Shown here: one piece after another, positions 9,237-64,000 of the stretch
How positions within the stretch are numbered: position 1 is the first letter of the stretch
Layout of the letters: each line of letters starts with the position of its first letter
From: a virus
Virus record (IMG/VR): IMGVR_UViG_3300012642_000011
Coordinates: 160,001-224,000 of that record
Strand: one strand, 5' to 3'
Length of the DNA stretch: 64,000 nucleotides
Notes under the pieces: model-generated
The model's input: the letters and a program-made list of their open reading frames with translations, nothing else
What the model was told of the DNA's origin: nothing
The model's database searches: none
Program-made: the position numbers and the translations under genes

Positions 9237-9265
9237 TAGTTAGTACTCCTGTGTATAAGATTATG

Positions 9266-9440: not shown

Positions 9441-9467
9441 AATGTATAATTACTCTTCAATGCTATT

Positions 9468-9803: not shown

Positions 9804-9850
9804 ATTGATTGGTGCTCCAGTGTATAAGATCAGTAATCACATAGTGTGAT

Positions 9851-10010: not shown

Positions 10011-10023
10011 AATCTATAAACTA

Positions 10024-10356: not shown

Positions 10357-10403
10357 TGTTTGGTGTTCCCTGTGTTGATTGAGTGAAAACTTTTTAACCT
10401 ATA

Positions 10404-10751: not shown

Positions 10752-10856
10752 TAGTTGGTGCTCCATTGTATAAGATAGTGATCACATTATGTGAAAACTT
10801 TTTAATTTATATCAAAGAATTCTAATACTAATATCTTATTCATTTATAATCTTTTC

Positions 10857-20851: not shown

Positions 20852-20915
20852 TAGAATAGAAGAACAAGAACCGGATCAAGAAAATATTCTGATCCAATGA
20901 AACATTGGAGTGCAT

Positions 20916-22397: not shown

Positions 22398-22398
22398 G

Positions 22399-42996: not shown

Positions 42997-43902
42997 ATGG
43001 ACTACCCTCTCATCATTGGCATACTCGTTGCTCTGATTTTTATCATCATAATGTATGAACTGCTTGTCCCCAAGTCAACTAGAGGACTAGTCTTCCATGA
43101 TGAGAATGCCTTCAATAAGAACCCCATTATGAAAGGATTTGCTGCGTTCGGAAACGAACTCTACACAGCATTACCTGAAGGTGTTCAAGTGGGCAACAAA
43201 GAGCGATACCCTCTCATCGAAGAATTAATTGTCAAATCAGGCAACCCATGGAACATCAACGCAAGAGAATACAAGATGATGCAAATCGTCCTTGCCGTCG
43301 TCGGTGCCATTGTCGGCGTTGCACTCTGGGCATCATTATACTTTGCACAAGGATTAACATGGTTACCATGGTGGGCATGTATTCTCGCCGGTACTGGATT
43401 GGGTTACATCACACCACACTCCAAGTATAAAGAACAAGCCAACCTCAGAGACCTTGAATTCAGAAGGCAACTACCAGAAGCCCTAGACCTTCTCATTATC
43501 ACTGTTGCATCAGGAGCCACAGTAGTCAACGGAATGAAGAACATTCTCCCTGACCTTCAGCCTGGCGTGGTTAAAGAAGAGTTCAAAAACATTGTCACCC
43601 ACGTTGAATCAGGTGGATCATTTGATGCTGCACTAGAAAACCTTGCTCTCAGAGCACCCAATGATGGTGTGGAAACATTCGTCAGGGCGCTTCAGGAAGC
43701 CAACAAGAGAGGATCAGACACTGTGGAGATCCTTGAATCCAGAGCAGAAGAATCCCGAAAAGATTTCTTCACGCTTCTAGAAAAGAAAGTTGCTACACTT
43801 TCCAGTAGGGTATTTATGATCCTCACGCCTACACTTATGCCCGCAGTTATGATTATTGCTATTGCACCATCTGCTGCATCACTTGCCGAGTCCCTTGGAT
43901 GA
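42997..43902 (+). CDS. TadB/TadC-like platform protein (T2SS-F domain)
   Basis: N-terminal TM, soluble GspF-like domain, two C-terminal TM helices; position next to the TadA-like ATPase. Confidence 0.55.
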   Translation: MDYPLIIGILVALIFIIIMYELLVPKSTRGLVFHDENAFNKNPIMKGFAAFGNELYTALPEGVQVGNKERYPLIEELIVKSGNPWNINAREYKMMQIVLAVVGAIVGVALWASLYFAQGLTWLPWWACILAGTGLGYITPHSKYKEQANLRDLEFRRQLPEALDLLIITVASGATVVNGMKNILPDLQPGVVKEEFKNIVTHVESGGSFDAALENLALRAPNDGVETFVRALQEANKRGSDTVEILESRAEESRKDFFTLLEKKVATLSSRVFMILTPTLMPAVMIIAIAPSAASLAESLG

Positions 43903-43913
43903 TTGGAGAAGAA

Positions 43914-46625
43914 ATGAAGAAATCTATTTTTGACCGTAAGAACAATGAAAACGATAGGGACAGAGGAACCATTGGATCACACCATGATGACCCTATGAGC
44001 GAAACCACAGATGCCCCACGACGCACCACTGGACTGCCTACCAACATCAGCAAGGACTTTGTTGAAATGCTCAATGATGATGCCAGTATGAAAGAGGCAT
44101 CAGAGAAAAGAAAGCAAAGAATTCTTTCATCGCATGATAACGATCCTGTAGCAAAGGCCATTCTTGAACAAGAAGGAAGATTAAAAGAGAAGTATGCTAT
44201 GGGAGGCGCAAGAGCAAAAAGAATACTCACTACAGACATCCTCATTGATGCTCCTAAAGATTATTTCACCAAGTACTATGACTTCGTAGCGAAAGCCGTC
44301 AGTGAGGCCAGAGAAGCCATCACGGCTAGAGGATTCTCCGATCACCTTGCTGATGCACTTGACAACCCCGCTGACGAGAAAATACAAGAAGAAACATACA
44401 GGAAGATTGAAGGAATCATTTCTGAGAAAATAGAAAATTCTCCCTTCACATCTACTATTGATACTCTCATCATTAGAACACTTGCCATTAACGATATCAT
44501 GGGATTCGGAATCATTGACCCATTATGGAGAGATAAAGAAGTATCCGAAATCATCATCAATGGACCTTACGATGTGCAAATTGAAAGACACGGAAAACTT
44601 TCTCGTGTGCCAGGTGCTCAATTCATTGACACTGCGCACCTCTATGACCTTATAGAAAAAATCTATAGGACGACAGGTAAAATGCCTTCTGCAACTTCTC
44701 CTCTCGTCAAAGGAAACCTCCCCGACAAGTCACGTGTCTTTGCTGTGGACACTTCAATTGCACCTGCTGGACCCAACCTCAGCATCAGAAAGCACCCTGA
44801 AAGATACTGGACTCCTGAAGATATGGTGAAACTTGGGTCTGCCAGCGAAGAACTCATGACTTACATAGGAAACCTTATTTACAAGGGCGCATCAGTTCTG
44901 GTTGTAGGCGGAACACACTCAGGAAAAGCACTGACACTTGACACTTTGATCAACACCCCACAAGGTCAAATCTCCATGAATGACATCAAAGAAGGAGATC
45001 AGGTCATTGATCATAATGGCATCATCGGAACTGTGCAAGCAAAGTATCCACAGCCTGCACGTCAAGTGTATGCTGTTGTCTTCTCCAATAAGGAAGTCGC
45101 ATTCTGTGATCTTGAGCACAATTGGTATGTCTATGATACTGATGGTCAATCACATGTAATGACCACAGAAGAAATCATTAACAGCGGAATCAGCAACGGT
45201 GAAGGAGAATACAAATTCAGTATACCATCATTGTCTACCCCTGTAGAATATGAATCAGGAATGACTCCTGATGAATTCGCACATCATCCCTACAAGATAG
45301 GCATTTCAGTTGGAAGAAAATGCGCTCTTCCTGACTACTTAAATGACATTGATTCCCCAAACAATAACAAGTACAGGGCAAACCTCGTCCAGCATGGTAT
45401 TATTGAACGCACTGAAAGCATCGAGAAAATAAAGATCAATGCTGACAGGTATGTTGGCCCACACCACATTGAAGACCAATACAAATTCTCCTCTGTGGAA
45501 TCAAGAAGGCACCTTCTTGCAGGATTAATTGACAGCATTGGATACAGCGGCAACTCCACAGGAACATGGAACCTTAAAGTTACCTCTGAAACACTGGCAT
45601 CTGACATTCAATTCATTGCGTCCTCTCTTGGATACATTGTAGAAATCTGCACTGCAAAGAAAGAAAGTTACGTTCAAGAGGGTACACGAGTTGAAGATGT
45701 AGAACTCTGGGAAGTTAAGATCAATTCCTCAGAAACTCTTGGATACAGCCATATATGGGAAACAATGATCGAAGAGATGGACATTGAGCATCAAGCAACC
45801 AATGTCAACATTGTTTCTATTCAACCCGTTGAGGGAAGAGTTGAGGAAATGGCATGCATCACTGTGGACACACCAGAAAACACCTATACTATAGGCAATG
45901 GGTTTACCACTACTCACAACACTACTCTCCTCAATGCATTCACAGGGTTCTATAAGAACACAGTAAGAATTGTCACCATTGAAGATAACATCGAAATGAA
46001 GCCCAACCCCAAGAAAATGTTGGCTCAAGCCATGGAGACAAAACCTGCATCAAGGAGTTCAAGTTCTACACCTGTAGAGATGACAGACTTGGTAAGGGCA
46101 TCTACACAGATGAGACCTGACGTAATCATTGTTGGTGAGGTTACTGACCAAAGCGCCCTTGACCTCATGGAAGTCATGAATACAGGTCACGCCGGAGCAT
46201 CCACTGTCCACGCTAACACTGCAGGCACATCCGTCAACAGAATGATTTCTCTGGCAAAGAAATCACAATTGGTTGACTACCAGGCAGCACTGGATATGTT
46301 TGCACAGGCATTTGACATCATTGTTGTCACACAATATTCCACTGTTGACCATTCAAGAAGGATTGTGAATGTCTCAGAAGTGGGACATAGACCTACAATC
46401 ATTGATGGTATCCCTACAGTTGAAACCTACCCACTATGGAAGTTCGTCAGCAGTGGAAGAGATGCCAATGGAAAGATTCAAGGAGATTGGGTAAAAGTAC
46501 AAGATATATCTGAAAGAAAGAAAGAAGACAAGAACTTGAACATGGAAGAAGATCTCACATGGGAACAATTGAAAGAAATCAGTAGCATCCCAGAAGAGAT
46601 GCAGCCAAAAATCGAAGATGACTGA
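43914..46625 (+). CDS. TadA/CpaF/KlbA-family secretion ATPase interrupted by an intein (aa 344-674) with a LAGLIDADG homing endonuclease
   Basis: Walker A is split: VVGGTHSGK | ALTLDTLINTPQG...LLAGLIDSIGYSG...IGNGFTTTHN | TTLLNAFTGF. The exteins join to GGTHSGKTTLLNAF. The intein starts with Ala and ends HN before Thr. Confidence 0.75.
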   Translation: MKKSIFDRKNNENDRDRGTIGSHHDDPMSETTDAPRRTTGLPTNISKDFVEMLNDDASMKEASEKRKQRILSSHDNDPVAKAILEQEGRLKEKYAMGGARAKRILTTDILIDAPKDYFTKYYDFVAKAVSEAREAITARGFSDHLADALDNPADEKIQEETYRKIEGIISEKIENSPFTSTIDTLIIRTLAINDIMGFGIIDPLWRDKEVSEIIINGPYDVQIERHGKLSRVPGAQFIDTAHLYDLIEKIYRTTGKMPSATSPLVKGNLPDKSRVFAVDTSIAPAGPNLSIRKHPERYWTPEDMVKLGSASEELMTYIGNLIYKGASVLVVGGTHSGKALTLDTLINTPQGQISMNDIKEGDQVIDHNGIIGTVQAKYPQPARQVYAVVFSNKEVAFCDLEHNWYVYDTDGQSHVMTTEEIINSGISNGEGEYKFSIPSLSTPVEYESGMTPDEFAHHPYKIGISVGRKCALPDYLNDIDSPNNNKYRANLVQHGIIERTESIEKIKINADRYVGPHHIEDQYKFSSVESRRHLLAGLIDSIGYSGNSTGTWNLKVTSETLASDIQFIASSLGYIVEICTAKKESYVQEGTRVEDVELWEVKINSSETLGYSHIWETMIEEMDIEHQATNVNIVSIQPVEGRVEEMACITVDTPENTYTIGNGFTTTHNTTLLNAFTGFYKNTVRIVTIEDNIEMKPNPKKMLAQAMETKPASRSSSSTPVEMTDLVRASTQMRPDVIIVGEVTDQSALDLMEVMNTGHAGASTVHANTAGTSVNRMISLAKKSQLVDYQAALDMFAQAFDIIVVTQYSTVDHSRRIVNVSEVGHRPTIIDGIPTVETYPLWKFVSSGRDANGKIQGDWVKVQDISERKKEDKNLNMEEDLTWEQLKEISSIPEEMQPKIEDD
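44928..45920 (+). other. intein coding segment (331 aa, class with Ala1; LAGLIDADG endonuclease) within the TadA-like ATPase P-loop
   Basis: Block A ALTLDTLI, LAGLIDADG-like LLAGLIDSIGY, block F/G ACITVDTPENTYTIGNGFTTTHN; +1 residue Thr. Confidence 0.65.
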
Positions 46626-51398: not shown

Positions 51399-52775
51399 AT
51401 GGTTAACAAGCCCAAAGCAGTATATATAGGACCACCTAAGATCGGTGCTGCAATTATGAAAAGAGTGACAGAATGGTCATTCGTTTACGCAGACTCCACC
51501 ATACAAGGGTTCACAGACAAACTGGACAATGATGAGATCGACAACGACATACAATGTATTCTCATCCACGATTCCCTCTACGTGCCCACAGCAGACAACT
51601 CTCCACAGCCATTCAACGTGTTTGCAGCACAGTACTCACCCTACTGCTTCTTCGGCATTCTAGAGTACCATGAGAACTACACACCAAGGATCAAGGAAGG
51701 CGTCTCATCCATCCTCAGCAACATGACAGGAGAAGATGAAACAGACCTTTACTTCATCTCAAAAGAAAACTTCAAACCAAGGCTCATCTCCAAAGTAGAA
51801 AGCTACATCTCCAAGCACGATAATGAAGTTGCCGCAATACTTGCAGGAAGAGAACCACAAAACATTGTTGACGAAGAAATCGAAACACGAAAAAGAGAAA
51901 TCGAAGACAACAATCACAGGATCGAAGAAGCCAAGTCCAAGTACCAATCAGGAGACCGTGACGGAAAAATCATTGCCTGCACCTCATCCAAGGGAGGATC
52001 AGGAAAATCAACCATCACACTTCTACTTGCAACCTACCTTGCTCATTCATCCATCCAATCTGTCAAAGACGGAGCAGAAAAAGAACCTCTCAAAATCTGC
52101 GTACTCGACCTTGACACCAAGGACGGGCAAATAGGATTCATCACAGGTGCTGTCAAGCCAACCATTACACATCTACAACGACATGGCATCACCAAAGAGA
52201 CAGTTGAACAAACTGCCATCTTCAACGACAGGCTCAAGGTTGACCTCTTCCTTGCTCCACAACGACTGCAAACAGCATTAGAGATCGAAGCAGGATTCTA
52301 CCAAGAACTCATAGCATTCCTGAGAACACAGTATGATTACGTCATCCTCGACACCTCAGTGAACTACTACGACCCCCTCCTTGGACAAGTCGCCTACCCC
52401 ATGGCAGACTTCATCATTTTCGTCACAGACATCGTGATCAACTCCATCTTCTCCATGAGCAGATGGATCACCAACGTCACCATGCCCATTGAGCGAAAAG
52501 GACTCGGAATCCCCAAAAGGAAAATCGGTATCATCATCAACAAAGCATCTACTGGTGTAAACATGCCACCAGAAAGAATCAGCAGCTTTGCAAATGGTGT
52601 CAGAATCATCACCGCAATCCCATCACAAGCCAAACTAATGGCAAACGCAGCCAACACTCAATCAATGGACCAAGCACTCAGAGACCCAACCATTAGAAAA
52701 CGAATAAGGAAGATCGCACAAGGCGTAGCAGGAAGAAACTACAAACTTGCCGAAAACTTCGCCATTGGTAGATAA
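51399..52775 (+). CDS. CpaE/TadZ-like ParA/MinD-family ATPase
   Basis: Deviant Walker A IIACTSSKGGSGKSTITLLLA with an N-terminal receiver-like region, as in CpaE/TadZ. Confidence 0.6.
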   Translation: MVNKPKAVYIGPPKIGAAIMKRVTEWSFVYADSTIQGFTDKLDNDEIDNDIQCILIHDSLYVPTADNSPQPFNVFAAQYSPYCFFGILEYHENYTPRIKEGVSSILSNMTGEDETDLYFISKENFKPRLISKVESYISKHDNEVAAILAGREPQNIVDEEIETRKREIEDNNHRIEEAKSKYQSGDRDGKIIACTSSKGGSGKSTITLLLATYLAHSSIQSVKDGAEKEPLKICVLDLDTKDGQIGFITGAVKPTITHLQRHGITKETVEQTAIFNDRLKVDLFLAPQRLQTALEIEAGFYQELIAFLRTQYDYVILDTSVNYYDPLLGQVAYPMADFIIFVTDIVINSIFSMSRWITNVTMPIERKGLGIPKRKIGIIINKASTGVNMPPERISSFANGVRIITAIPSQAKLMANAANTQSMDQALRDPTIRKRIRKIAQGVAGRNYKLAENFAIGR

Positions 52776-52793
52776 CAATTAAATACACGACAC

Positions 52794-52837
52794 GCAGAGG
52801 GGCCACTGATAACACTTGCTATCAGTGGCCCCTCTGC
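52794..52837. terminator. bidirectional terminator between convergent genes
   Basis: 18-bp stem GCAGAGGGGCCACTGATA / TATCAGTGGCCCCTCTGC. Confidence 0.7.
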
Positions 52838-52868
52838 TATGAACTCAACCATCAGGAAAATCTCAAGA

Positions 52869-54416
52869 TCAAGACTCACCACGCATGATCTTATTGAACA
52901 ATTCCAAATTGGGAGCATAAGAAGCCGCAACCTCCAAAGTACAATCATTCTTCCTCACAGCATTAGCTAAAGCATGCTCCATCGTCAACCCATTCCTAAT
53001 CATATATTGTTTAATAGACCACGTATCACCCTTCAAGATCATGGGCCTGATCTCATCAACAACAGGAAGAGCACAAGATACACTAATCAAGTTACCATTC
53101 TTCTTAGAAGGAACCAATACCTGATTCACCACCCCAATCAACTGCTCATTCAAAGAAGTCAACACCGTCTGCCTCTCCTCACCAGAATACTGAGCAATAA
53201 TTCTCGTAATAGCAGTCTCAGGACTATCAACGTGCATAGTAGACATAGAAAAGTGACCAGACTCAGCAGCCCTCAAAAACTCATCGACCTCAGACCTATC
53301 CCTAATCTCACCCACCATAATCATCTGAGGATGCTGACGCAAAGCACCCTTGATACCATCAGCAAAAGTCCTCAAATCAGTACCCAACTCCCTCTGAACA
53401 ATAAGACCTGCAGAATCATCAAAAACATACTCAATAGGATTCTCCAACGACACAATCTTCTTCGGATCTCTTCTCAAAACCTCATTCACAATAGAAGCAA
53501 ACGTCGTTGACTTACCGGAACCAGTAGCACCACACACCAAAACCATACCAGACGCCCTCTTCACCCACTCCAAAAGATAAGGATGAACACCAATCGCTTC
53601 AGGAGTAGGAATCTTAGAATTAATAATACGGAACGTCATATCCGGCGAATCACTAGTATGAGCAATATTCAACCTCGTCCTCACACCCCTATGCCTACCA
53701 GAATTAATCACATAAGCAGTATCAGCACCACGATTCTGAGCAAACTCACGCCTCTTCACATTACTGACAATCTCCGTCAAAAACCTTTCCACAACAGACA
53801 CAGGAATAACCCCGAAATCATTATAAGAACTCACTTTCTTATTAATCGTCAACCACACAGGAGCATCAGGCTTAATATGCACATCAGAGGCACCCTTATC
53901 AATCCCAAAAGCAAGAATCTCATCAATCTTTATATGAGCATAAGGATCATCTTCTTCATCATCGTCATCCTCATCAAAATAACCCTCAGAAGGATCAAGA
54001 GAGGCACGAGAGAGAATAGCATCCAGATCTGAATCAACTACACCACCACCTGATGAAACCCTCTCAGAATCGCTCTCAGGCTGTTCTACAACACCACCAT
54101 CCCTCAGAGCCAAAATGCTCTCAAAGTCATCCTCATCATCATCGTCATCATCCTCAACGATCTCTACAACCTCTTCCTCAACATCAATATTAGTATCCAT
54201 ATAGACATCAGCAGGAGAACGAGAAAGATCAACAGGAGTATCATCATCAGGCAAATCATCATCCTCATCAGAATCAAACGTAGAATTAATGATTTCCGTC
54301 TTATCCAAAAGACTCTGCTCCCTCAAAGCAAAAAAATCATCATCAGAAAACTCATCATTCTCATCTGGAAGATCATCATTCTCATCAGGCAAATCATCAT
54401 CAAAAGAAAAACTCAT
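52869..54416 (-). CDS. PilT/PilB-like (GspE-family) secretion ATPase with an acidic repeat N-terminal extension
   Basis: ASDVHIKPDAPV, Walker A VLVCGATGSGKSTT, Walker B MIMVGEIRD; N-terminal repeats DDLPDENDDLPDEND and poly-D/E. Confidence 0.7.
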   Translation of the reverse strand: MSFSFDDDLPDENDDLPDENDEFSDDDFFALREQSLLDKTEIINSTFDSDEDDDLPDDDTPVDLSRSPADVYMDTNIDVEEEVVEIVEDDDDDDEDDFESILALRDGGVVEQPESDSERVSSGGGVVDSDLDAILSRASLDPSEGYFDEDDDDEEDDPYAHIKIDEILAFGIDKGASDVHIKPDAPVWLTINKKVSSYNDFGVIPVSVVERFLTEIVSNVKRREFAQNRGADTAYVINSGRHRGVRTRLNIAHTSDSPDMTFRIINSKIPTPEAIGVHPYLLEWVKRASGMVLVCGATGSGKSTTFASIVNEVLRRDPKKIVSLENPIEYVFDDSAGLIVQRELGTDLRTFADGIKGALRQHPQMIMVGEIRDRSEVDEFLRAAESGHFSMSTMHVDSPETAITRIIAQYSGEERQTVLTSLNEQLIGVVNQVLVPSKKNGNLISVSCALPVVDEIRPMILKGDTWSIKQYMIRNGLTMEHALANAVRKNDCTLEVAASYAPNLELFNKIMRGES

Positions 54417-54488
54417 CCCAACACCACCTCATATATACAATAAAGACAAAAACTTCTCATCATCTATTATCAACCACAAAAAGACAAA

Positions 54489-56540
54489 TCAAATCTTCCA
54501 CAAATCATTCCCCTTGAAAACACCATCCTCAGTAATCACAGGAACAATAGAAATCTTCCTCTTCTGAAAAAGATTAATCGTAGCCTTCTTAGCAATAGAC
54601 TCAAGCTTCATAGCAGCACCACGTGAATGACACACCCACACAACCTTACTATAAATCCTCTCATCATCAGCATAAGCCCTCAACGTTCGCTCATAACTAG
54701 CAGCATCCTTATTAGCAATCTCCACCTCAACAGCAATAGAACGCGGAGAACCATCAGCAGCACGAGGACGTGCAATCACAAGATCAGGAACATGATAAGA
54801 AGAACGCGTCGCCCTCTGCCTAGGCAACAAAGTCCACATAAACTCATTACCCGGCATCATCTCAGGAGAAGGAATTCTAGCACGATCAGAATGAGACAAC
54901 CACGTTTTAAAATCCGCATCCATCCTATTCATGATCTTCGGACGAAAATCATCAGCAACCTCAGTACCCCTCAACCTCGTCAAAGAAGACTGAATCTGCA
55001 ACTCCGAAACCAAATTCTCACCAGAAACACGATTACCACTCACATCAATCCTGTTATCAGAAGGAAAATCATTCAAATACAACACATTCAAACCACCACT
55101 CCACAAATGAGCAGCAACATGATTCGTAGTAAACGTATGATTAAACATAGAATACGTCACACCACTCTTCAACGTCCTCTTCACATCAAGACCAGTCAAC
55201 AACATACCAGCCTCAGTCAAATACCACACACTACCAACATGATAAATCTTCTGCCTCGTCACCAAACCCTGCTTCAACAATTTACCCATTCTCAAATTAG
55301 TCTGATTCTGCTTCGTATTCACCAAAATAGAAATATTCCTCGTCGTAGCATACTTAAACATAGCCAAAAATCTCAAAACCTCAAGATCCTTCGCATTCAC
55401 ACCAGGCAACATCCTACCCTTCTTAAAAGCATCCTCACCCTCAACAATCTGCTCCAACACCCGCACAGCCCGCACACCAGAACCATCCCTCTCCAAAGCC
55501 TTCTGAGCAAACCCCCTCACATCAGGATCATTACGCAACTTATTCACAGAAGAATTCAACCTCTTAAAAAAGTCCACCTCCTGCTCAGCCAACCTCATTC
55601 TAGAACCATCAGAACGCTTCCTACGCACCCTCTTCTGAGCACCAAAAATAATCTCCGTCTCACCATCACCAGAACCAGAATCATCCTCAACAACCATCTC
55701 AAAAGCATCCCTCGACCTAAACTCAGTCTGAGAATCCTGCACGCCAACCTTCTTATGATCATCCGACACAACAACATTAGACTCTAAGAAATCATCCCGA
55801 CGAGCACTCTTCCTACTACTCTTCTTCCTCTTCTCAGTAGCAGACCTCCTAAACTCATCCAACTCCTCACGATGCACCCTAGCCTGAGGAGTCTCAGGAA
55901 CATCCTCCGACAACACATCAGCCAACACATCACGATCCACACCAATAGCAGAATCACCACTAGGATCAGAAACAGCATCAACACCAGAAACAGAAGCATC
56001 AGAAGAAATCACATCAGTAAACTCTTCATCATCCTCATCCTCAAGGAAAAAATCAGACTCCCCATCATCAGAATCATCCTCATCCTCAACAACCAAATCA
56101 GAAGACCCACCAACAACATCATCAACACTTCCCTGACCAGAAGAAACACCCACTGAATCATCAACGCCAACCAAAGCAGACCCCATAGGCAAAGAAGGCA
56201 ACGCATCACCAGAATCAGAAGAAATCACATCAGTAAACTCTTCATCATCCTCATCCTCAAGAAAGAAATCAGACTCCACATCATCAGAATCGGAAATCAA
56301 ATCACCCTCAAAATCAAAATCATCCTCATCAAAATCCTCCCCCAAAGATTCACGCATACGAGCAATCTCCTGACGCATCAAAGCATCCTGCTGCATACGA
56401 TTCTTCTCCATCTCAGCCCTCAACTGATCAGGAGTCAACACAACCTCATCATCCTCAAAAAAGAAATCAGACTCCCCATCCACAGAATCATAATCCGAAT
56501 CACCAAAAGAAGACATACCCCTAGGAATCATCACAATCAC
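54489..56540 (-). CDS. large acidic repeat protein with a C-terminal globular domain (possible wHTH + PD-(D/E)xK-like)
   Basis: Repeated DFFLEDEDDEEFTDVISSD modules; the C-terminal 330 aa is non-repetitive with ...VPDLVIARP...IAVEVEIANKD. Confidence 0.55.
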   Translation of the reverse strand: MIVMIPRGMSSFGDSDYDSVDGESDFFFEDDEVVLTPDQLRAEMEKNRMQQDALMRQEIARMRESLGEDFDEDDFDFEGDLISDSDDVESDFFLEDEDDEEFTDVISSDSGDALPSLPMGSALVGVDDSVGVSSGQGSVDDVVGGSSDLVVEDEDDSDDGESDFFLEDEDDEEFTDVISSDASVSGVDAVSDPSGDSAIGVDRDVLADVLSEDVPETPQARVHREELDEFRRSATEKRKKSSRKSARRDDFLESNVVVSDDHKKVGVQDSQTEFRSRDAFEMVVEDDSGSGDGETEIIFGAQKRVRRKRSDGSRMRLAEQEVDFFKRLNSSVNKLRNDPDVRGFAQKALERDGSGVRAVRVLEQIVEGEDAFKKGRMLPGVNAKDLEVLRFLAMFKYATTRNISILVNTKQNQTNLRMGKLLKQGLVTRQKIYHVGSVWYLTEAGMLLTGLDVKRTLKSGVTYSMFNHTFTTNHVAAHLWSGGLNVLYLNDFPSDNRIDVSGNRVSGENLVSELQIQSSLTRLRGTEVADDFRPKIMNRMDADFKTWLSHSDRARIPSPEMMPGNEFMWTLLPRQRATRSSYHVPDLVIARPRAADGSPRSIAVEVEIANKDAASYERTLRAYADDERIYSKVVWVCHSRGAAMKLESIAKKATINLFQKRKISIVPVITEDGVFKGNDLWKI

Positions 56541-56544
56541 ACCT

Positions 56545-58040
56545 CACACTAGAATCCCATATACATATAAGATCACAACAATCAACCCTGAACAAAAACA
56601 ATCCCAACAGAAAAATCCAAGATCACGTAATTGAACAGATCAATGTATTGTAACAAAAATAAACCTACCACAACGCAAAAATATACAGCGCAAACTCCAC
56701 ACCACCAACCAAAACAACACCCTCACACAACCACACCACAATACCCAAAACAGACCATCCTATACTTTAAAATAAATAAATAAAAACAGCCAACAACGCA
56801 CACTCAAGCCAACAAACCCACAACCAACATCCAAAGCACCACAATAGACAAACACCACCTACTACACCAAACCATTAAAACAATCAGTACTAAGAACACC
56901 CACACAACAATAAACTTCATAAGCACACCACAACAACCAACAACACTCAAAGACACAAGAACACAAGCACACAAGACAACCAAGCACACAAAAGAAATAC
57001 ACCAGCAGCGCACATAACCTGAGCATAGACATCAAAGCCAAACCACGATTACAAAAACACAAATCAACCCAAAGCCACGCACACACAAAACAAAAATGTA
57101 TAAATTAAAACCTAAAATCAAACATTCAAAACACCAAAACAACGCACACCAAGACTACAAAGAACACAAACAAGCGCCCAAAACCGCCAGTATAAAATCC
57201 CACAACACACAACGTGCTATACAAACCAACCCAACACAAGCACACAAAACAAACTCTTCTACACTATAAAACTACACAACCCAACCTCAATCACGCAACA
57301 CAGTCATCACAATCAAAGCCCAAAAACAAACCTCAAAGACTCCACAGCCCAACCTAAAAACCATATAACCTAAACCAAAAACAACACAACTGAACCTAAA
57401 ACTTTACAACAAGACACTACACAGACAGAAAAATAACTCATTAAAACCTTAAAACCAATCACCACAAATTTTAAACCCAAGCATCACAAACTCCAAAATG
57501 ATGCAACACAAACCTTAAACCAAGTATTAAAAACCGCATGGCACAAAATACAAACTTTAAAATCATGCCTCACAAACTTTAAAATCGCGCCTTACAAAAC
57601 CGCACCACACATATTACAAACTTTAAAACCACGCAACAGAAGACAAAACAACCACGATACAAATACATACTACAGAACACAAACACAGTCAAACCAACAC
57701 TGCAAACACACCCAAACCAATACTTTCAAACATTCAAATCAACTTCGCCAAACACCTAAACTAACACCGCCAAACAATCAACACCAATACCCAAACAACA
57801 CCCTAAAACAAAAAACAAACACTCCAAAATAAAAATCAACAATGAAAACACTACTACACCAACAATGAAAACGCTACTACTACAACCAGAAATAAATCAA
57901 AATTATCAACACCCTGTGCAAAACATGATTCCCAACCCAAAAACCCCAATAACAACACTAAAAAATAGGAAAAAATAGAAACCATTCGAAAACGAATATA
58001 AAAATAGAAACCAGGGTACAAACCAGGTTTTACTGTCAAA
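56545..58040. repeat. 1.5-kb G-depleted A/C-rich non-coding tract with embedded 22-23-nt periodic ACAAACTTTAAAAYC repeats (57455-57640)
   Basis: The + strand is almost entirely A and C with no ORF of 60 aa or more. ACAAACTTTAAAATC occurs at 57550, 57572 and 57616, with related units upstream. Confidence 0.8.
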
Positions 58041-58041
58041 A

Positions 58042-58063
58042 GATTTCAGAAGCTTCTGAAATC
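58042..58063. promoter_or_regulatory. 22-bp perfect palindrome GATTTCAGAAGCTTCTGAAATC
   Basis: Exact inverted repeat centred on AAGCTT at the junction between the A/C tract and the DnaA-box cluster. Confidence 0.6.
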
Positions 58064-58126
58064 CTTTGTATCAAAAATCATAATTATCAACAATCCCGCT
58101 CCCGCCACACCCAGAACTACTTCTTC

Positions 58127-58178
58127 TGTGGATAACTAAACAACGAATGTGGATAAGAATACTTCTACATGTGGACAA
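58127..58178. promoter_or_regulatory. cluster of three same-orientation DnaA boxes (TGTGGATAA x2, TGTGGACAA) at 21-22-bp spacing; candidate origin of replication
   Basis: TGTGGATAA at 58127 and 58148 is the reverse complement of the consensus DnaA box TTATCCACA; TGTGGACAA at 58170; a TTATCAACA variant sits at 58084. The cluster lies at the A/C to G/T strand-composition switch. Confidence 0.55.
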
Positions 58179-58399
58179 GATGTTAACACTACAACTACAA
58201 CAAACATATATACAAATACAACGACAACAAACACACCTACCACAACTACGAATACCACCACCACGAACACGATCACAGTTAACACGATGAAGACCCTCAC
58301 AGCCTTCATCACAACCAGTACACACGCTCACGCGAACACCCCCACGCGCTCAGTACACGATCTCACGATCATCACCAACCAGCACACGCTCAAGGAACA

Positions 58400-59450
58400 G
58401 TGACCTGTACATGCTGACATGGGAAGGGGTGTGCGCATACTCTTGAGAGGCATGATCACCATGGCATCGAACAGCACCCATGGGAGGGAAGGGGTGTGCG
58501 CACATGGTTGCAAGGTCAGCGTAAGAGGACAATGGTCACGTTGATCTCATGGGGTAACGGGTGTGCGCATATAGTTGGTCTGATGGCAGGGGTCACCACG
58601 TAGGTAAAGAACTCGTGAGAGGTATAAGTCAATGCGTGGTGTTGCTCGTGAGAGAGGTACTGAGTGATGACGCGTGAGCGTGGGGATGGGTGTGCGCATA
58701 CAGTTGATGGGGAGAGTTGATCGGAGAATCTCACCTCGTGGGTAAAGTAATCATGAGGAGGAGAGAACGGGTGTGCGCACACTGTTGTGAGCAGTAGGTC
58801 AGAGAAATAAAGTGGGACTATGATGAGGTAGGTTCCTCGTGAGAGGTCATCATCTGAAGAAGGGGAATCATGAGGGGGATAGTTTCCGTAGAGAACCTAA
58901 AGGGAACTCATGACGCGTGAGCGTTGATCATCACGTTGGTACAGGGGAGCAGAGCGGGTACTCATGAGGGGAACTGGGTACTCACGATGGTTGACTGTTG
59001 GAGGGTACTGATGGTTGCGGGGAGAGATCATGGAGCAGGAGAGATCATCATGAGGCAGGGAGATCACGGTGGAACAGGGAGATCACATGGTGGGCGGAGA
59101 GCGTGGAGATCAGAGCGGGGGAACTCATGGGTCAGTTGGTGGTTGGGGAGCGAGGGGAACTCATGGTATGGGAGGCTACTGTTGAGAGCGAGGGAGGTCA
59201 TGGTGGGAGCAGGAGAGGTCATGGTGGTTGCTGTTGGGAGCGGGAGCAGGGGAGGAGAGTGTGATGGGGAGATGATGATGGCTGAGGGGGAGGTGAGGAG
59301 AGGGTACTGTTGGGAGCAGGGGTGAGGGCGAGGAAGAGCATGATGGCTAGGTGAGGAGGCTGTGTGAGGTTGGGGAGGAGAGGGTGCTGGGGAGAGCGCG
59401 TGAGCGTGTGACGGGGGAGGTTGTTGGTGACGGCGCTGCGCGGGCGGTGT
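58400..59450. repeat. C-poor G-rich degenerate tandem-repeat region with five GGGTGTGCGCAYA motifs (58424-58790) and GGTCATGGTGG / ACTCATGAGG-type repeats
   Basis: GGGTGTGCGCA at 58428, 58491, 58559, 58690 and 58771; downstream many variants of GAGATCATGG, GGTCATGGTGG, GGGAGCAGG; no credible ORF. Confidence 0.7.
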
Positions 59451-59765
59451 CGTAGGTTTTTATTTTTTTGAGGGGGCTGCGCTCGCGGTGGGGGAGGTTT
59501 TTTAGGGACACAGTTTGGGGAGAGGAAATAATTTCATGGGGAGAGTAATAATTCTGGTCATGGTAGTGTATGCTGGTGTGGTGTTTTATTTCTTAGGGTG
59601 TGCTGTCGCCGTGGTCAGGTTGGAGTGTGCTGTGGGTTTGTGTTGTGTCGGCGGGGTAGTGAATTCGTGAGTTGACTTTTATTGTTCTCTGTGTGAGCAT
59701 GTTCTCTGTGTGAGCGTGGGAGATATAATTCGGTTGTTGTTGCAGTGTAGTGTTTGTAATGTGGT

Positions 59766-59810
59766 GCGACCCGCTGTTCTCCCGTGTGGGGTACTGGGCG
59801 GGCCGCTTGT
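59766..59810. repeat. conserved GC-hairpin element, copy 1 of 3 (others at 60044-60085 and 62700-62745)
   Basis: CCCGCTGTTCTCCCGTGTGGGGTACTGGGCGGG: GC stems around a conserved loop TGTYYTCYCGTGTGRGGTWCTRG; each copy lies just 3' of a minus-strand gene. Confidence 0.6.
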
Positions 59811-59820
59811 GATCGTGGGG

Positions 59821-59922
59821 TCAGGCGTCCATGTCGTCCATCTGGTCGGCAACGTAGCCGGAGCTCTTCGTGAGGAGGAAGAGGAAGATGGCGAAGTAGA
59901 GGATGATGAAGATGATTTCCAT
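59821..59922 (-). CDS. 33-aa hydrophobic peptide MEIIFIILYFAIFLFLLTKSSGYVADQMDDMDA
   Basis: Minus-strand ATG preceded by AAGGAGAACATC; single TM helix; followed 3' by hairpin copy 1. Too short for the ORF track. Confidence 0.45.
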   Translation of the reverse strand: MEIIFIILYFAIFLFLLTKSSGYVADQMDDMDA

Positions 59923-60043
59923 GATGTTCTCCTTGTGGAGTGTGGGGGTTTGGTCTCTTCCCTTGCCCTGTTGATGGTTTAATCATAGCATGGGGGACGC
60001 TCCATGCGCAAGGTGGTGTGGGAATTAATTTGTCGTGAAGTGG

Positions 60044-60085
60044 CCCGCTGTTTTCTCGTGTGAGGTACTAGGACGGGCCGCTTGC
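60044..60085. repeat. conserved GC-hairpin element, copy 2
   Basis: GGCCCGCTGTTTTCTCGTGTGAGGTACTAGGACGGGCC. Confidence 0.6.
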
Positions 60086-60165
60086 TGCCGTGGGACGGAC
60101 ATTTGTGTGCTGCTGGTTGGGTGCAGCAGTGTGTTTCCTTGTGGTTGGTGGTGTTGCCTTTGGTG

Positions 60166-60309
60166 TCAGCCGAGGTTGTTCCAGTGGGTATCGGGGGTGT
60201 GTCGGGGCTGGGTCTTGTCGTATCGCACGGTCTGGGCCTTGGGGGTGGGGTTGAGGGCGAAGAAGGATGCGATCACGAGGGTGGCGATGACGATGAGCAG
60301 GGCGGTCAT
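60166..60309 (-). CDS. 47-aa small membrane protein MTALLIVIATLVIASFFALNPTPKAQTVRYDKTQPRHTPDTHWNNLG
   Basis: Minus-strand ATG preceded by TAAGGAGAACACC; N-terminal TM helix; hairpin copy 2 downstream. Confidence 0.45.
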   Translation of the reverse strand: MTALLIVIATLVIASFFALNPTPKAQTVRYDKTQPRHTPDTHWNNLG

Positions 60310-60578
60310 GGTGTTCTCCTTAGGTGTCGTTGTTGGTTTAATCGTATCATGTGGTTTGGGTGTTGTCTATGTGTGCTGGTGTTCGTGTGTGGTTTTATTT
60401 AGGGACACAGGTTTGCGTAGTGGTGGTTTTCGGTTTAATTGTTCATGTTGAGTGTGTGCAAGTGTCCTCTCCGTGCGCAAGTGTCTTCTCCATGCTACCA
60501 CACGCACGCTTGCATATGCAGGAACGCTTGCACACGCCTCCCTGTGCAAGCGTTGTGTGGAGTGTTCTTGTGGGTGTG

Positions 60579-60899
60579 TTAGCCCATGAGGTAGTTGCTG
60601 TATGCGTTGGAGCATCGTGGGGAGCATACGCTGTCGTTTCCGGCGTCTTCTACGGAGAAGGTGTCACCGCAGTTGAGGCATTTGGCCCAGTGTTCTCCGA
60701 GGATAAGGATGCGGAGGTTGATGGCTGCGATTTCTCTGTGTTCTGGGTAATCACTGTTGAGGTTTTCTAGGGTGCTGGTGATGTGTTCTCGTTTGGGGTC
60801 GTTGGGGTCGAGGTTGTTCACGTATTCATTGATGGCGTGGTCTGTGAGGTTGGGGTGGGAGAGGAGGATGTTTACTTTGAGGTTGTTGATGCTTGTCAT
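60579..60899 (-). CDS. small zinc-ribbon protein
   Basis: CLNCGD...CSPRC (CxxC...CxxxC) in a 106-aa ORF. Confidence 0.5.
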   Translation of the reverse strand: MTSINNLKVNILLSHPNLTDHAINEYVNNLDPNDPKREHITSTLENLNSDYPEHREIAAINLRILILGEHWAKCLNCGDTFSVEDAGNDSVCSPRCSNAYSNYLMG

Positions 60900-61124
60900 T
60901 GTGTTCTTCTTTCTCTTTGTATTGATGTGATGCCGTTTTTTGTTGTGAACGTGGGTAGTGTTGTTGTTTTATCGATTTCTTCTAGTTTCTTTGTCCATTC
61001 TTGTATCTGTTGCTGGTGTTGGTTTTGGTTGGTGTGATGGTGTTCTCCCTGTTGGTGGTTTTGTTTATTGTGTCGTTTGTGTTTTCTTTTCATGTTTTAC
61101 CTAGGGGCTGTATGATTTGTGCTT

Positions 61125-61382
61125 TTAATATGCGTGTTTTATTGGGAGTGTTCCTTTTCGCATGAGTGTGGTGAAGGTCCAGATGCAGGCTAGTGTGGAT
61201 GCCAGCGGCCAGAGTGGGGCGATGATGGCGATGAGGGCACCGATTTTGCGCATGTGTAGTGAGCGGTTTGTGACGTAGTTGGTAGTGTTGCTTCCTACGC
61301 AACCAGCTACGATCCAGAGGGCTACGGTGACAATCGACCATACGGTGAGGATTGTGATGTATAGAGTGTCTGGGTTGTTCAT
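61125..61382 (-). CDS. small membrane protein
   Basis: Start set at MNNPDTLYITI directly after the stop of the upstream paralog gene with SD AAGGAAG; two TM helices. Confidence 0.5.
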   Translation of the reverse strand: MNNPDTLYITILTVWSIVTVALWIVAGCVGSNTTNYVTNRSLHMRKIGALIAIIAPLWPLASTLACIWTFTTLMRKGTLPIKHAY

Positions 61383-61384
61383 GG

Positions 61385-61846
61385 TTAGTTCTTCCTTACC
61401 TTCCATGTTCCGATGATGACTTTTTCTCGGGCGATGCATTTTCTGATTTCAGAGTCGGATGTCCATATTCCATACCAGTATCCACCTATACCGAGTACGG
61501 CTTTCTGGGTGCGCCATGTTTTTCCGCATACTACGGCTTCGATAAAGTTACGGTTATCTGCGGGGATGATGACTGTTTTTCGTGTCTGGAAGATGGTGTC
61601 AGGCTGTTTCTCGCGTCGGATTGTGAGCGTGATGCCGTCTCCTTCGCCGTAGGTGATCCATCTGCCGTCTTCGCTTCGGCACATACCATAAGCATCTCTG
61701 TGGTGGAAGATTCCTTCGCGGCGTTCGATGACGGTCATCCCGTTCACTTTTCTTTTCCACACCCATGTGAGGTGGTCTCCCAAGATGGCGTCGTTGGCTC
61801 GTGCGTTCTCGATGATCTGCATGTTCGTGTGATCTTGTGTAGTCAT
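61385..61846 (-). CDS. member A of a 3-gene paralogous family (~150 aa; N-terminal M..QTIENA...LPGD..TW)
   Basis: Shares MxxQ.IENA, LPGDH.TW, REG.AHH, WI.GG.G, TI.R, IIPA, IEAV blocks with 62000-62467 and 63186-63638. Its start overlaps the stop of the upstream small gene (ATGA). Confidence 0.6.
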   Translation of the reverse strand: MTTQDHTNMQIIENARANDAILGDHLTWVWKRKVNGMTVIERREGIFHHRDAYGMCRSEDGRWITYGEGDGITLTIRREKQPDTIFQTRKTVIIPADNRNFIEAVVCGKTWRTQKAVLGIGGYWYGIWTSDSEIRKCIAREKVIIGTWKVRKN

Positions 61847-61995
61847 TTCGTTTCCTTGACGTCGATGTGGTATGCGGCCATGATGGCTGTGATGAATGCG
61901 CAGTAGGCGGAGATTGTGTATAACTCTTGCGCTCCTGTCTTCAGGCCGATGACGACGAGGGCGAGGAGAATGAAGGTGGCTGCGATGTATTTCAT
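61843..61995 (-). CDS. 50-aa small membrane protein MKYIAATFILLALVVIGLKTGAQELYTISAYCAFITAIMAAYHIDVKETK
   Basis: Open frame between paralogs B and A; ATGA overlaps at both ends; two hydrophobic helices. Confidence 0.45.
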   Translation of the reverse strand: MKYIAATFILLALVVIGLKTGAQELYTISAYCAFITAIMAAYHIDVKETK

Positions 61996-62467
61996 GGTTC
62001 TACTTTACATGTACCGTTGATGATGTTTTCTGGGGCGACCGAGGTGTGCAGTTTATAGGATATGTCCAATTTCTTATCTGATGTGAGGATAACTTTAAAC
62101 TCTCGCCATGCTGCTTGCCATTGTCCATTGTGGTCAAGGACGGCTTCACGTGCTCTGTACTTTTTCCTTCTACCACGGCTTGGATGCGTTCATGCCCGTC
62201 AGCGGGGATGATGGCTGTCATTGGTTTTGTGGGGAGGGTTGTTTGTAGGGTTCTGTGGATGGTGAGTTCGCTTTCGCCTGCTGTGATCCATGCACCTTCT
62301 TTGTTTTTCCAGTCGCCGTTTGCGTCTTGGTGGTAGGCGGTTCCTTCGCGTTGTTGTGTGACGGTGATCATGCCATCATGGCGGGTCCGTGTCCAGATGA
62401 GGTAGTCACCGGGGAGTACGTCTTTGCATTTGGCGTTCTCGATGGTCTGTATGTTATGATTGCTCAT
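61992..62467 (-). pseudogene. member B of the paralogous family carrying a -1 frameshift at an A5 run (~62150-62160)
   Basis: The frame from ATG 62467 matches the paralogs up to ...IQAVVEGK. The conserved C-terminal block (HNGQWQAAW..., GTCKVEP-stop) continues in the -1 frame and ends in an ATGA overlap with the next gene. Confidence 0.55.
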
Positions 62468-62699
62468 TGTGCTCCTGATTATGGGAATATTTACACTACT
62501 GATCTATCCACTGTAGCATATGTGTGTCTCGTTTTCAACCCTATTGGGGATGTTTTCTTTAGGTTGCTGTGAAGTGTTCGTGACTTTGGGGTTAGGTTGC
62601 TGTGGGGACACAATGTTGGGTGTAATAATCTTGTGTTTTCGTCATGGTGTTTTATCTGTTCTGTGTACTTTGTCATCTGTGTGCTTTGTTCAATCACTA

Positions 62700-62745
62700 A
62701 CGGCCCGCTGTCCTCCCGTGTGGGGTTCTAGCGGGCCGTTAGTGA
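62700..62745. repeat. conserved GC-hairpin element, copy 3
   Basis: CGGCCCGCT-GTCCTCCCGTGTGGGGTTCT-AGCGGGCCG: 9-bp perfect stem. Confidence 0.6.
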
Positions 62746-62787
62746 TTGCTTCTGATGTGCTGACAGGAGTGAGCAGCGTGGGGGCGT

Positions 62788-63189
62788 TCAGTCGTGCGTC
62801 TTGGGGCGTCGAATCGTGATGCCGGTGATTTCTCTCTTGCCATCGCCCCAGTAGTCATCCTTGAGCATGACAGTTCCCCACGTCACATGATCTCCGACTC
62901 GGATGTGCTTGCCGGTATCGTCGTGGATGATTTCCATGTTGTCGTTGATCTGTTGTGCCGTGTTGTTGGGGGTGGCTTTACGGTTCTGCAGGTCGTTGAA
63001 GAAGTACACTCCCCAGATGCAGAGGAAGGGGAGAATCATGAGGCAGATCATGAAGTAGACGGCAGCGGTTGCATCGGTCAGCACGGGGGTGATGTCTGCG
63101 ACCATCCATGCGAGCAGGTTGTTGAAGGGGTGAGAGGCGTGCGCGTAGTTGAGCGTTTCGATGAACGTCTCGATCAGCGTTTCAATCAT
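62788..63189 (-). CDS. membrane protein, hypothetical
   Basis: Start set at MIETLIETF where ATG overlaps the stop of the upstream paralog (ATGA); TM helices followed by a soluble C-terminus. Confidence 0.5.
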   Translation of the reverse strand: MIETLIETFIETLNYAHASHPFNNLLAWMVADITPVLTDATAAVYFMICLMILPFLCIWGVYFFNDLQNRKATPNNTAQQINDNMEIIHDDTGKHIRVGDHVTWGTVMLKDDYWGDGKREITGITIRRPKTHD

Positions 63190-63638
63190 GATGCTCTCTC
63201 CTTCGTCTTCCATGTGTCTGGGGTGATGTAGCTGGCGTACATTTCATAGGTCGAGTGGTCGTTCTCGCCCCGCCAGACACCCACCCAGACACCTTCTGTT
63301 GCGTCGTAGGTGGCATGGCGCGTCGTGTAGGTCACCTCGTCCCACACGGCCTCGATAACTCCGTGGGCAGGGATGATCTGTGTGCCGTCCTCCGTGGGGA
63401 GGCTCTTGACGGGGCGGCGGATCGTGATGGCGCTGCCATTGCCGTCGCCACCCGCGATCCACATGCCGTCCTCGGCGCACCAGTCGTCGTCCTCGTTGCG
63501 GTGGTGGGCGATCCCCTCACGGATTTCGGTGCAGGTCACGCCGCGCGCCGCCCAGGTTTTTTTCCAGGTGATGTGGTCGCCGGGGAGCACGTCGTCAGGG
63601 GTCGCGTTCTCGATGGTCTGTACGTTCTGCTCGCTCAT
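63186..63638 (-). CDS. member C of the paralogous family
   Basis: MSEQNVQTIENA...LPGDHITW...REGIAHH...WIAGGDGNGSAITIRR...IIPAHGVIEAV...GVWVGVW; SD AAGGAGAG upstream. Confidence 0.6.
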   Translation of the reverse strand: MSEQNVQTIENATPDDVLPGDHITWKKTWAARGVTCTEIREGIAHHRNEDDDWCAEDGMWIAGGDGNGSAITIRRPVKSLPTEDGTQIIPAHGVIEAVWDEVTYTTRHATYDATEGVWVGVWRGENDHSTYEMYASYITPDTWKTKERAS

Positions 63639-63743
63639 TCTGTTCTCTCCTTCAGAAGAAATTGGTAGGGAGTGCTTTGCTCTGTGTTGTCCTCCCTGTT
63701 AACGTGATTATTTTACCAAGCGAGGGGACGCTCTGCTGTTTAC

Positions 63744-63995
63744 TCAATCGGTGGATCGAATTACAGCGTTGTTCTTCAGCCACGTTTCACCAGACACCAG
63801 CGCATCACCGAATACATCTGCTCGCTCGGATACCCACGCGTTATCACACACGTGTGCATTGCCGGACACATTTGCCATACCGAAAATCATCGCATTACCG
63901 GACACCAACGCATTTCCAGACACGCGTGCGTTACCAAATACCCATGCTGTGCCGATCACTCGTGCATTGCCGTCCACGCCTGCATTGCCAGACAC
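63744..63995 (-). CDS. hexapeptide-repeat ([GD]NAxV[SF]) protein; may extend beyond the window edge
   Basis: 12 consecutive 6-residue repeats GNARVI GTAWVF GNARVS GNALVS GNAMIF GMANVS GNAHVC..., suggesting a left-handed beta-helix-like repeat. Confidence 0.5.
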   Translation of the reverse strand: MSGNAGVDGNARVIGTAWVFGNARVSGNALVSGNAMIFGMANVSGNAHVCDNAWVSERADVFGDALVSGETWLKNNAVIRSTD

Positions 63996-64000
63996 GCATA

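Follow-up and report, generated by a model that had tools for sequence, protein, structure and literature searches.

A G-rich kilobase with five spaced repeats belongs to a conserved, strand-specific non-coding element beside a divergent Replic_Relax/MOB_C-like gene

The DNA studied here is a 64,000-nt stretch of IMG/VR virus record IMGVR_UViG_3300012642_000011 (positions 160,001 to 224,000; the whole stretch is called the window below), and the subject is a G-rich kilobase near its right end (positions 58400-59450). The data give good support to the kilobase as a non-coding element that is conserved, strand-specific and linked to a Replic_Relax/MOB_C-like (relaxase-like) gene, and that combines imperfect-palindrome repeats with small, stable, covarying hairpins. 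Our tentative preference is to see it as the right arm of an origin-type cis-acting DNA site that would act as a binding array for the neighbouring protein. The element most likely marks the start of strand-specific DNA processing, either transfer or replication.

Five exact copies of GGGTGTGCGCAYA were found in the window, all on the + strand, with cores at 58427-58439, 58492-58504, 58559-58571, 58688-58700 and 58769-58781 and start-to-start distances of 65, 67, 129 and 81 bp; shuffled sequences gave a mean of 0.05 copies. A search for this 13-mer elsewhere in the 64 kb returned no further match, even when one mismatch was allowed. The array of five direct repeats spans 58421-58787 on the + strand. 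A sequence-only reading of this DNA, produced earlier by a model from the letters alone, had described a C-poor, G-rich kilobase with five spaced motifs, and this was confirmed, with base counts of A 246, C 146, G 448 and T 211 (43% G, 14% C). The conserved unit exceeds the motif noted at that time: it is about 25 nt long (GGGAAGGGGTGTGCGCAYAnnnTTG), and each of the five cores contains the imperfect palindrome GTGTGCGCAYAY.

The kilobase had also been taken for an array of degenerate tandem repeats, and this part did not hold. Tandem Repeats Finder reported only two short, weak arrays, one at 59027-59090 (period 19, 3.4 copies, 73% matches) and one at 59186-59227 (period 21, 2 copies), and outside these two the kilobase was built of dispersed short repeat families. 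The kilobase does not repeat one unit regularly; it is composed, mosaic-like, of the five-repeat array, six hairpins with a GTGA loop, and degenerate G-rich filler on the + strand (58830-59430) with short dispersed repeats such as GGTCATGGTGG, GGGGAACTCATGG and GGGAGCAGG. The word CATG occurred 19 times in 58400-59450 against 2.8 expected (z = 10), and GATC, GCGC and GTAC likewise exceeded expectation in this C-poor strand, so that the remaining cytosines lie largely in motifs and self-complementary words. Folding gave a modest z of -3.3 for the repeat part and no extra stability over shuffled sequence for the second half (58830-59470, z about 0); the z-score of the region folded as a whole is inflated by compositional segmentation.

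The earlier statement that the kilobase is non-coding stood. The open reading frames (ORFs) at 58924-59325, 58998-59264 and 58516-58782 were of low complexity, lacked a Pfam match and were unconserved in relatives, and a protein-coding reading was rejected. An array resembling clustered regularly interspaced short palindromic repeats (CRISPR) and a set of tandem small-RNA genes were rejected as well, the repeats being too degenerate and the units too short, with no cas gene among the scanned ORFs. An assembly artefact, which would have undone the whole description, was ruled out, as the 12 kb from 52001 to 64000 were 100% identical between contigs of two samples assembled independently with different assemblers. 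Neither megablast nor blastn matched the region to a sequence in the phage and plasmid collections.

Three features had escaped the sequence-only reading: covarying hairpins with GTNA loops, a terminator-like structure at the right edge, and a strand polarity of the core 7-mer that extends genome-wide. The six GTGA-tetraloop hairpins lie on the + strand between 58612 and 59408, three of the form CTC-GTGA-GAG (58612, 58645 and 58835) and three of the form (A)CGC-GTGA-GCG(T) (58670, 58913 and 59397), against 0.06 expected and a maximum of 1 in 500 shuffles. The motifs CGCGTGAGCGT and CTCGTGAGAGG, half-seen earlier, represent a second motif, which is a hairpin with a GTGA loop. Across species the loop of the GC-GTNA-GC core was kept, while the sequence of the outer stem varied yet stayed complementary; the outer stems carried 1.61 extra Watson-Crick pairs, compared with 0.41 when partners were permuted (z about 9-10). 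The strand of these hairpins changed at about 58395, with + strand copies to the right and - strand copies to the left (58334 and 58370), and the relatives had the same mirror layout.

At least 18 related metagenomic loci, ranging from 37 to 61% GC and encoding homologues of the relaxase-like protein with 41-49% identity, showed the same layout upstream of the relaxase-like gene. In the orientation of the window, the shared order was a - strand gene, a G-poor leader, a hairpin-rich centre, the repeat array, GC-GTNA-GC hairpins, G-rich sequence and a T-run, the last often accompanied by a terminator-like hairpin. The arrays of relatives had 3-10 same-orientation repeats. Their core was GTGTGCG, as in the window, at 14 loci, and four loci had GTGTGACAC(C) instead; an obvious array was missing in two related loci with enough sequence. 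Among close relatives the centre was best conserved (92-97%), whereas the array was only 46-71% identical with its cores kept; fast divergence with retained cores is the behaviour expected of binding-site arrays. DNA past the T-run could not be aligned in two of the three close-relative pairs with sequence there.

The composition of the strands switches at the same place. The GC skew went from -0.66 at 57-58 kb to +0.54 at 59-60 kb, with a cumulative minimum at about 58 kb, and faded within about 6-10 kb on either side; the sign switch lay at the same place in related loci. The suggestion that the kilobase and the A/C-rich tract to its left form a pair of mirrored composition was thus borne out. 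To the left, the relaxase-like and adenosine triphosphatase (ATPase) genes have the G/T-rich strand as their coding strand; to the right, three paralogues and a set of tiny genes for membrane peptides, the latter with AAGGAG sites, lie on the - strand and have a C/A-rich coding strand. The skew is therefore independent of gene orientation and is no coding-strand effect. No clear signal of strand emerged when unpolarised C/T and A/G differences were compared among close relatives.

The core 7-mer followed the same switch. Left of the site GTGTGCG occurred 13 times on the - strand and twice on the +, and right of the site it was found on the + strand; GTGTGCG and the overlapping GGTGTGC were the top two on the - strand among 105 words of the same composition. 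Ten non-redundant related loci had 42 copies on the - strand and 8 on the + strand on the left side, and 44 and 0 copies on the + and - strands, respectively, in the arrays. The sole + strand cores left of the switch in the window lie among small - strand genes (8907-10766), where two identical 40-nt intergenic elements with a + strand GTGTGCG stand 570 bp apart, at 9399 and 9969. A second array, of 6-9 GTGTGCGCGTNA repeats, was observed in high-GC relatives (L020 12089-12533, L021 12096-12424 and L022 11088-11379). It lies about 7 kb left of the site, past the relaxase-like, ATPase and DNA ligase genes and between convergent genes; its units are about 58 nt long, each repeat being paired with a GTGTGACAC half-site and many copies 20-21 bp apart, and its polarity is that expected for the left side.

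The gene beside the element (54489-56540, - strand) encodes a 683-aa protein, which is a candidate binder or processor of the array. The sequence-only reading had advised looking beyond the window for a Rep or ParB-like gene; this candidate is adjacent and inside it. The N-terminal half of the protein is acidic and low-complexity or repetitive, and the C-terminal ~340 aa are conserved, with 41-49% identity to family members in the C-terminal half, a MarR-like winged helix at residues ~365-436, and residues D583, E602, E604 and K608, in the context PDLV...EVEIxxK, invariant in the family alignment. From homologues and profile matches, the protein is predicted to combine a winged helix with a PD-(D/E)XK nuclease core and to be a divergent member of the Replic_Relax/MOB_C relaxase family. 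PF13814 (Replic_Relax), which corresponds to the MOB_C relaxase superfamily (PMC5357655), was matched by 9 of the 12 family members (best E 1.9e-6); the window's own copy fell below Pfam significance when taken alone, so that MOB_C membership holds at the family level only. A representative-genome scan with the protein found one distant Leucobacter homologue only, and its C-terminal domain matched nothing among plasmids by tblastn. The length of the N-terminal region was highly variable among homologues (606-857 aa). In the window, this half contains a 78-bp repeat (55997-56074 and 56213-56290, 96% identical and 216 bp apart) and a 45-bp tandem repeat (56027-56123).

Downstream on the same strand lies a secretion ATPase gene of the T2SSE family (VirB11/CpaF-like; 52869-54416; PF00437, E 1e-34), and this pairing was kept in all related loci. 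Adjacent genes of type IV secretion system (T4SS) type include AAA_10, TcpE and T2SSE. No clear VirD4/TcpA coupling protein was identified beside the site, and no match to a Rep family of Pfam or PHROG was found among the scanned neighbouring genes.

Between the gene and the kilobase lies the left arm, an A/C-rich, G-poor non-coding tract (56541-58030; GC skew -0.59 to -0.66) whose - strand is G/T-rich. Within it are short tandem repeats and, on the - strand, three GTGTGCG copies (56797, 57078 and 57143). A 66-bp tandem repeat of 2.3 copies with a nested 22-bp unit (ACAAACTTTAAAATCAYGC...) was seen in this arm at 57486-57638, about 1 kb upstream of the start of the relaxase-like gene. An AT-rich stretch (57950-58030) adjoins a near-perfect 32-bp palindrome (58037-58068; -12.6 kcal/mol, z -4.0), and three DnaA boxes of the same orientation follow on the - strand at 58127-58178, 21-22 bp apart: TTATCCACA at 58127 and 58148, the sole perfect boxes of the window, and TTGTCCACA at 58170 with one mismatch. 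The + strand has two more boxes with one mismatch (TTATCAACA), at 57903 and 58084. At its inner end the left arm has a C-rich segment (58314-58392), which carries on its - strand the GTGA-loop hairpins CGC-GTGA-GCG (~58334) and GATC-GTGA-GATC (~58370) and shows complementarity to a number of G-rich segments in the right arm.

The right boundary (59430-59502, + strand) consists of a GC-rich hairpin (59430-59453; -16.8 kcal/mol, z -3.0), a T-run and a second, weaker copy; judged from its sequence, the hairpin with its T-run is similar to intrinsic terminators and would act on + strand transcripts. L022 and, more weakly, L014 had like-oriented counterparts, and T-runs were seen at the equivalent place in L009, L010 and L029. 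Short-read contigs of other samples (L003, L004 and L035) stopped or diverged at about 57850-57970 and at about 60230; these contig ends, flanking the element, suggest strain-level variation or assembly difficulty centred on the locus.

Under the origin-type explanation, the five GGGTGTGCGCAYA repeats would be the binding sites of the relaxase-like protein, parallel to the five TraX-bound repeats in the origin of transfer (oriT) of plasmid pAD1, which lie away from the nick. Cutting or unwinding would begin near 58395, between the arms, and on each side the outward 5'->3' strand would be repeatedly exposed as single-stranded DNA. Such exposure could leave the outward strands depleted in C and could place the GTNA-loop hairpins and GTGTGCG on those strands on both sides; the degenerate G-rich filler would then be mainly a by-product of strand-biased mutation and local duplication. 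Support comes from the conserved linkage of the element with the gene across loci of 37-61% GC, from the PF13814 family matches and the invariant PD-(D/E)XK residues, from array turnover with kept cores, from the skew flip and the GTGTGCG polarity, from the mirror-image hairpins on the outward strands, and, in the window, from the DnaA-box cluster, AT-rich tract and palindrome alongside.

The closest known system is oriT2 of pAD1/pAM373 in Enterococcus faecalis, whose MOB_C relaxase is TraX. There, too, the cis site stands directly beside a Replic_Relax/MOB_C gene, and a hairpin or inverted-repeat region is flanked by about five same-orientation direct repeats. TraX combines a winged helix with a restriction-endonuclease-like core and binds the five direct repeats, which lie 70-120 bp from nic and are thus a relaxase binding site away from the nick (PMC12857230). 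Unlike that of pAD1, the present site is chromosomal in a tiny genome; its kilobase arm is extremely G-rich, with extra GTNA-loop hairpins and a mirrored strand composition, and its protein is very divergent from TraX, with a long acidic N-terminal extension. The repeats of pAD1 are short (6 bp), much shorter and closer together than the present units of 13-25 nt spaced by 65-129 bp.

The sequence-only reading had proposed iterons for an initiator or partition protein, or else a centromere-like site or a recombination hot spot; the data speak neither for nor against the last two. The part that stood is the array-like behaviour, which recurred in at least 18 related loci, and a likeness to iteron origins such as RK2 oriV, pSC101 and P1 oriR, in which direct repeats also accompany DnaA boxes, an AT-rich tract and a winged-helix gene. 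The part that did not stand is the spacing: classical iterons of 17-22 bp are phased at about 22 bp, whereas the spacing here is irregular and three to six times larger, and iteron-like phasing, as pairs 20-21 bp apart, occurred only in the second array of the high-GC relatives. In further contrast with iteron origins, the neighbouring protein belongs to no known Rep family, and among the loci searched perfect DnaA boxes were found in this species only.

Several points weigh against the origin-type explanation. At 65-129 bp, the repeats stand much farther apart, and with less regularity, than those of the pAD1 oriT or of iteron origins, and a single nick alone would not yield a symmetric two-sided skew. 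No DnaA box of perfect consensus was found in the searched upstream regions of related loci, and, as noted, the window's own protein did not reach significance for PF13814. Patescibacterial T4SS are regarded as probably non-conjugative (PMC10633639, PMC12102498). The GNRA-like loops, the G-U excess, the promoter-like site and the + strand terminator-like hairpin fit a transcribed RNA equally well or better. Finally, protein binding, nicking, single-strand exposure and the outcome, transfer or replication, are what we infer.

A non-coding RNA of about 1.0-1.1 kb, transcribed rightward on the + strand, with its start near 58445 and its end at the terminator near 59470, is the alternative to be taken most seriously; although unlikely, it is a substantial possibility, and the DNA-site and RNA readings are not exclusive, since both can hold. 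As RNA, the GGGUGUGCGCAYA repeats and the GUGA-capped hairpins would be protein- or RNA-binding modules of a sponge or scaffold, and the divergent relaxase-like mRNA would carry the left-hand mirror-image hairpins in its long 5' leader. The excess of six GUGA-loop hairpins over the 0.06 expected and the covariation of the GC-GUNA-GC stems fit such a transcript, as does the terminator-like hairpin with its U-run (59430-59470) and its counterparts in L022 and L014. A promoter-like site was present at 58414-58441; its match was weak (9/12), and promoter-like sites were not enriched in the region. Allowing G-U pairs in the stems added pairs above chance and allowing A-C pairs added fewer, a weak hint that the G-rich strand is perhaps the folded one, and the repeat units folded into G-U-rich extended stems. 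The centre of the high-GC clade contained at least five helices with compensatory changes. A covariance model of it matched that centre within the clade only, with weak reverse-strand matches in the right arms that are consistent with the mirror arrangement of the arms; it detected no homologue in the window, which has a G-depleted centre.

Other observations speak against an RNA. For this element, no Rfam 15 family reached the gathering score, either in the window or in the eight related loci scanned, and permissive thresholds added only chance-level matches to small nucleolar RNAs (E 0.4-0.7). The part from 58830 to 59470 folded like shuffled sequence, and the array evolved very fast, with shifts in copy number and spacing. 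Short GC-GNNA-GC hairpins are very stable as single-stranded DNA too. G-richness and skew run for kilobases past the putative transcript regardless of gene orientation, and an RNA leaves them unexplained. Large or repetitive RNAs such as OLE, GOLLD, ROOL and CsrB/RsmZ resemble the element in being long and non-coding, with hairpins capped by GNRA-type loops, covarying stems, repeated motifs and a terminator at the end. They differ from it in that the present element has no Rfam match, lacks detectable structure in one half and turns over very fast, and its composition bias continues well beyond its end.

A chromosomal replication origin (oriC), or a control region close to one, is a quite unlikely reading of the site; in this reading the DnaA boxes and AT-rich tract would initiate, the repeats would bind an origin regulator unrelated to the neighbouring gene, and the skew would be an exaggerated form of ordinary replication skew. 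The window's sole perfect DnaA boxes do cluster here, beside the AT-rich tract and the palindrome, the skew switch has the sign of an origin with its cumulative minimum at about 58 kb, and the polar 7-mer diverges from the site. In addition, T4SS loci of Patescibacteria often adjoin dnaA/oriC (PMC12102498), and in Southlakia the T4SS genes 6-19 directly follow dnaA-dnaN-recF, in a locus whose gene set differs from the present one. Against this, dnaA and dnaN were not found in 58 kb to the left, in 15 kb to the right or in related loci, and no DnaA box of perfect consensus was found here in the relatives searched. The skew is extreme only locally, fading over about 6-10 kb. Moreover, 40 kb of genes, among them DnaE, GyrA, RadA, transfer-messenger RNA (tmRNA) and tRNAs, point at the site, as they would at a terminus, and this convergence argues against a simple chromosomal origin.

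We regard it as very unlikely that the repeats, instead of being sites for the neighbouring protein, are densely clustered copies of a polar signal that occurs genome-wide and is recognised by a DNA translocase or recombination enzyme, in the manner of the FtsK-orienting polar sequences (KOPS), the SpoIIIE recognition sequences (SRS), the clt locus with TraB recognition sequences (TRS) of Streptomyces, or Chi. The core 7-mer is over-represented and strand-polar in the window and in related loci, the second dense array of the high-GC relatives, about 7 kb off, has the polarity expected from its position, and the window contains a gene of the FtsK/SpoIIIE family (29850-30905). Like KOPS, SRS and TRS-clt, the motif is a short G-rich word clustered at one locus and scattered elsewhere, with a polarity that flips at a point. 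Unlike them, it has no adjacent FtsK-like gene, is partly palindromic and clusters where polarity diverges. The polarity rests on about 11 scattered copies, and gene orientation and position are confounded outside the locus and the block at about 9-11 kb, where the + strand exceptions lie. Arrays of 5-10 copies are not known for KOPS, SRS or Chi. In some lineages the motif is replaced by GTGTGACAC without any shift in its position next to the gene, so that the lineage-specific change tracks the locus of the neighbouring gene. Least probable of all is a functionless, decaying spacer shaped only by strand-biased mutation and slippage at the edge of a hypervariable, GC-richer island: the second half is of low complexity without a structure signal, the right-hand DNA is hypervariable with 50-58% GC against 41%, and short-read contigs break nearby, but lineages of 37% to 61% GC share the cores, the hairpins and the arrangement of parts, and the surviving cytosines are concentrated in motifs and self-complementary words (CATG z = 10).

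The origin-type site would be part of a bacterial secretion locus. The window carries tmRNA, signal recognition particle (SRP) RNA, tRNAs, DnaE, GyrA and RadA, which indicates cellular DNA rather than phage or plasmid, and no phage or plasmid record matched it. Its proteins were otherwise found only in metagenomes, human oral ones included, on contigs of up to 437 kb, and relatives of the relaxase-like gene lie on contigs of 0.67-0.73 Mb. The secretion locus contains pilus and T4SS-type genes (T2SSE, T2SSF, TcpE, AAA_10 and ParA-like). The host is probably an uncultured small-genome bacterium similar to Patescibacteria/Saccharibacteria, a judgement based on contig sizes in relatives, gene content and the oral source. 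An Inocle, a giant plasmid-like element of the mouth, was considered because of contig size, oral source and the Replic_Relax marker gene and was rejected: Inocles have 24-32% GC and a marker, InoC, of about 454 aa with an N-terminal domain, and the window has tmRNA, SRP RNA and tRNAs.

Type IV secretion is essential to the epibiotic life of cultivated Saccharibacteria. No recognisable relaxase has been described in the T4SS of Southlakia or in most Patescibacterial T4SS clusters (PMC10633639, PMC12102498), and here a divergent MOB_C-family gene and an elaborate conserved cis-element occur together inside a secretion locus of the type reported to lack one. No description of such an architecture was found in the literature searched. 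If the element is functional, its binding repeats, its hairpins and the candidate protein would offer a testable handle on T4SS cargo, and it would explain the assembly breaks at the locus and the hypervariable island alongside. It is unlikely, in our estimate, that the lineage keeps a working, divergent MOB_C-type relaxase with a bidirectional site, that the secretion machine has single-stranded DNA or a structured RNA of the kilobase as its true substrate or regulator, and that the GC-rich island is a place of DNA exchange; a working relaxase with a bidirectional site would overturn the view of these T4SS as relaxase-free and not handling DNA.

The repeat array lies exactly at the edge of this island, which occupies 59500-64000 and extends beyond the window (L033 1-10000 corresponds to 63.6-73.6 kb), giving at least 15 kb of small unknown ORFs. 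Its GC content is 50-58%, compared with 41% elsewhere in the window, and it is hypervariable when close relatives are compared. A second TnpB-like gene and an ORF with a Phage_VG64 domain lie within it. Two - strand mini-modules near its start (59826-59930 and 60167-60310) each have a promoter-like TGnTATGAT...TTAAACC, an AAGGAG ribosome-binding site and a hydrophobic ORF (~34 and 47 aa, respectively) that could encode a small pilin-like or toxin-like membrane peptide. Similar imperfect palindromes of about 44 nt lie downstream of them (59767-59810 and 60040-60083), and L009 and L010 have mini-modules of the same kind. Three - strand paralogues of 150-155 aa follow (61385-61846, 62000-62467 and 63186-63638), with an unusually C/A-rich coding strand and a shared N-terminal motif, QxIENA...LPGDHxTW, and without a family match.

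Elsewhere in the window, DnaE spans three consecutive ORFs (20910-22397, 22360-23487 and 23496-26183), which suggests an intein or insertion, and a 908-aa T2SSE ATPase (43899-46625) contains a homing-endonuclease domain of the intein type. An IS607-like pair, a serine recombinase and a TnpB/Cas12f-like protein, lies at the left end (175-2372). Two tRNA genes follow it: one at 2822-2898, to which ARAGORN assigned a four-base anticodon (caag), and one at 3138-3221, called tRNA-Sec by Rfam, just over threshold, and tRNA-Cys by ARAGORN.

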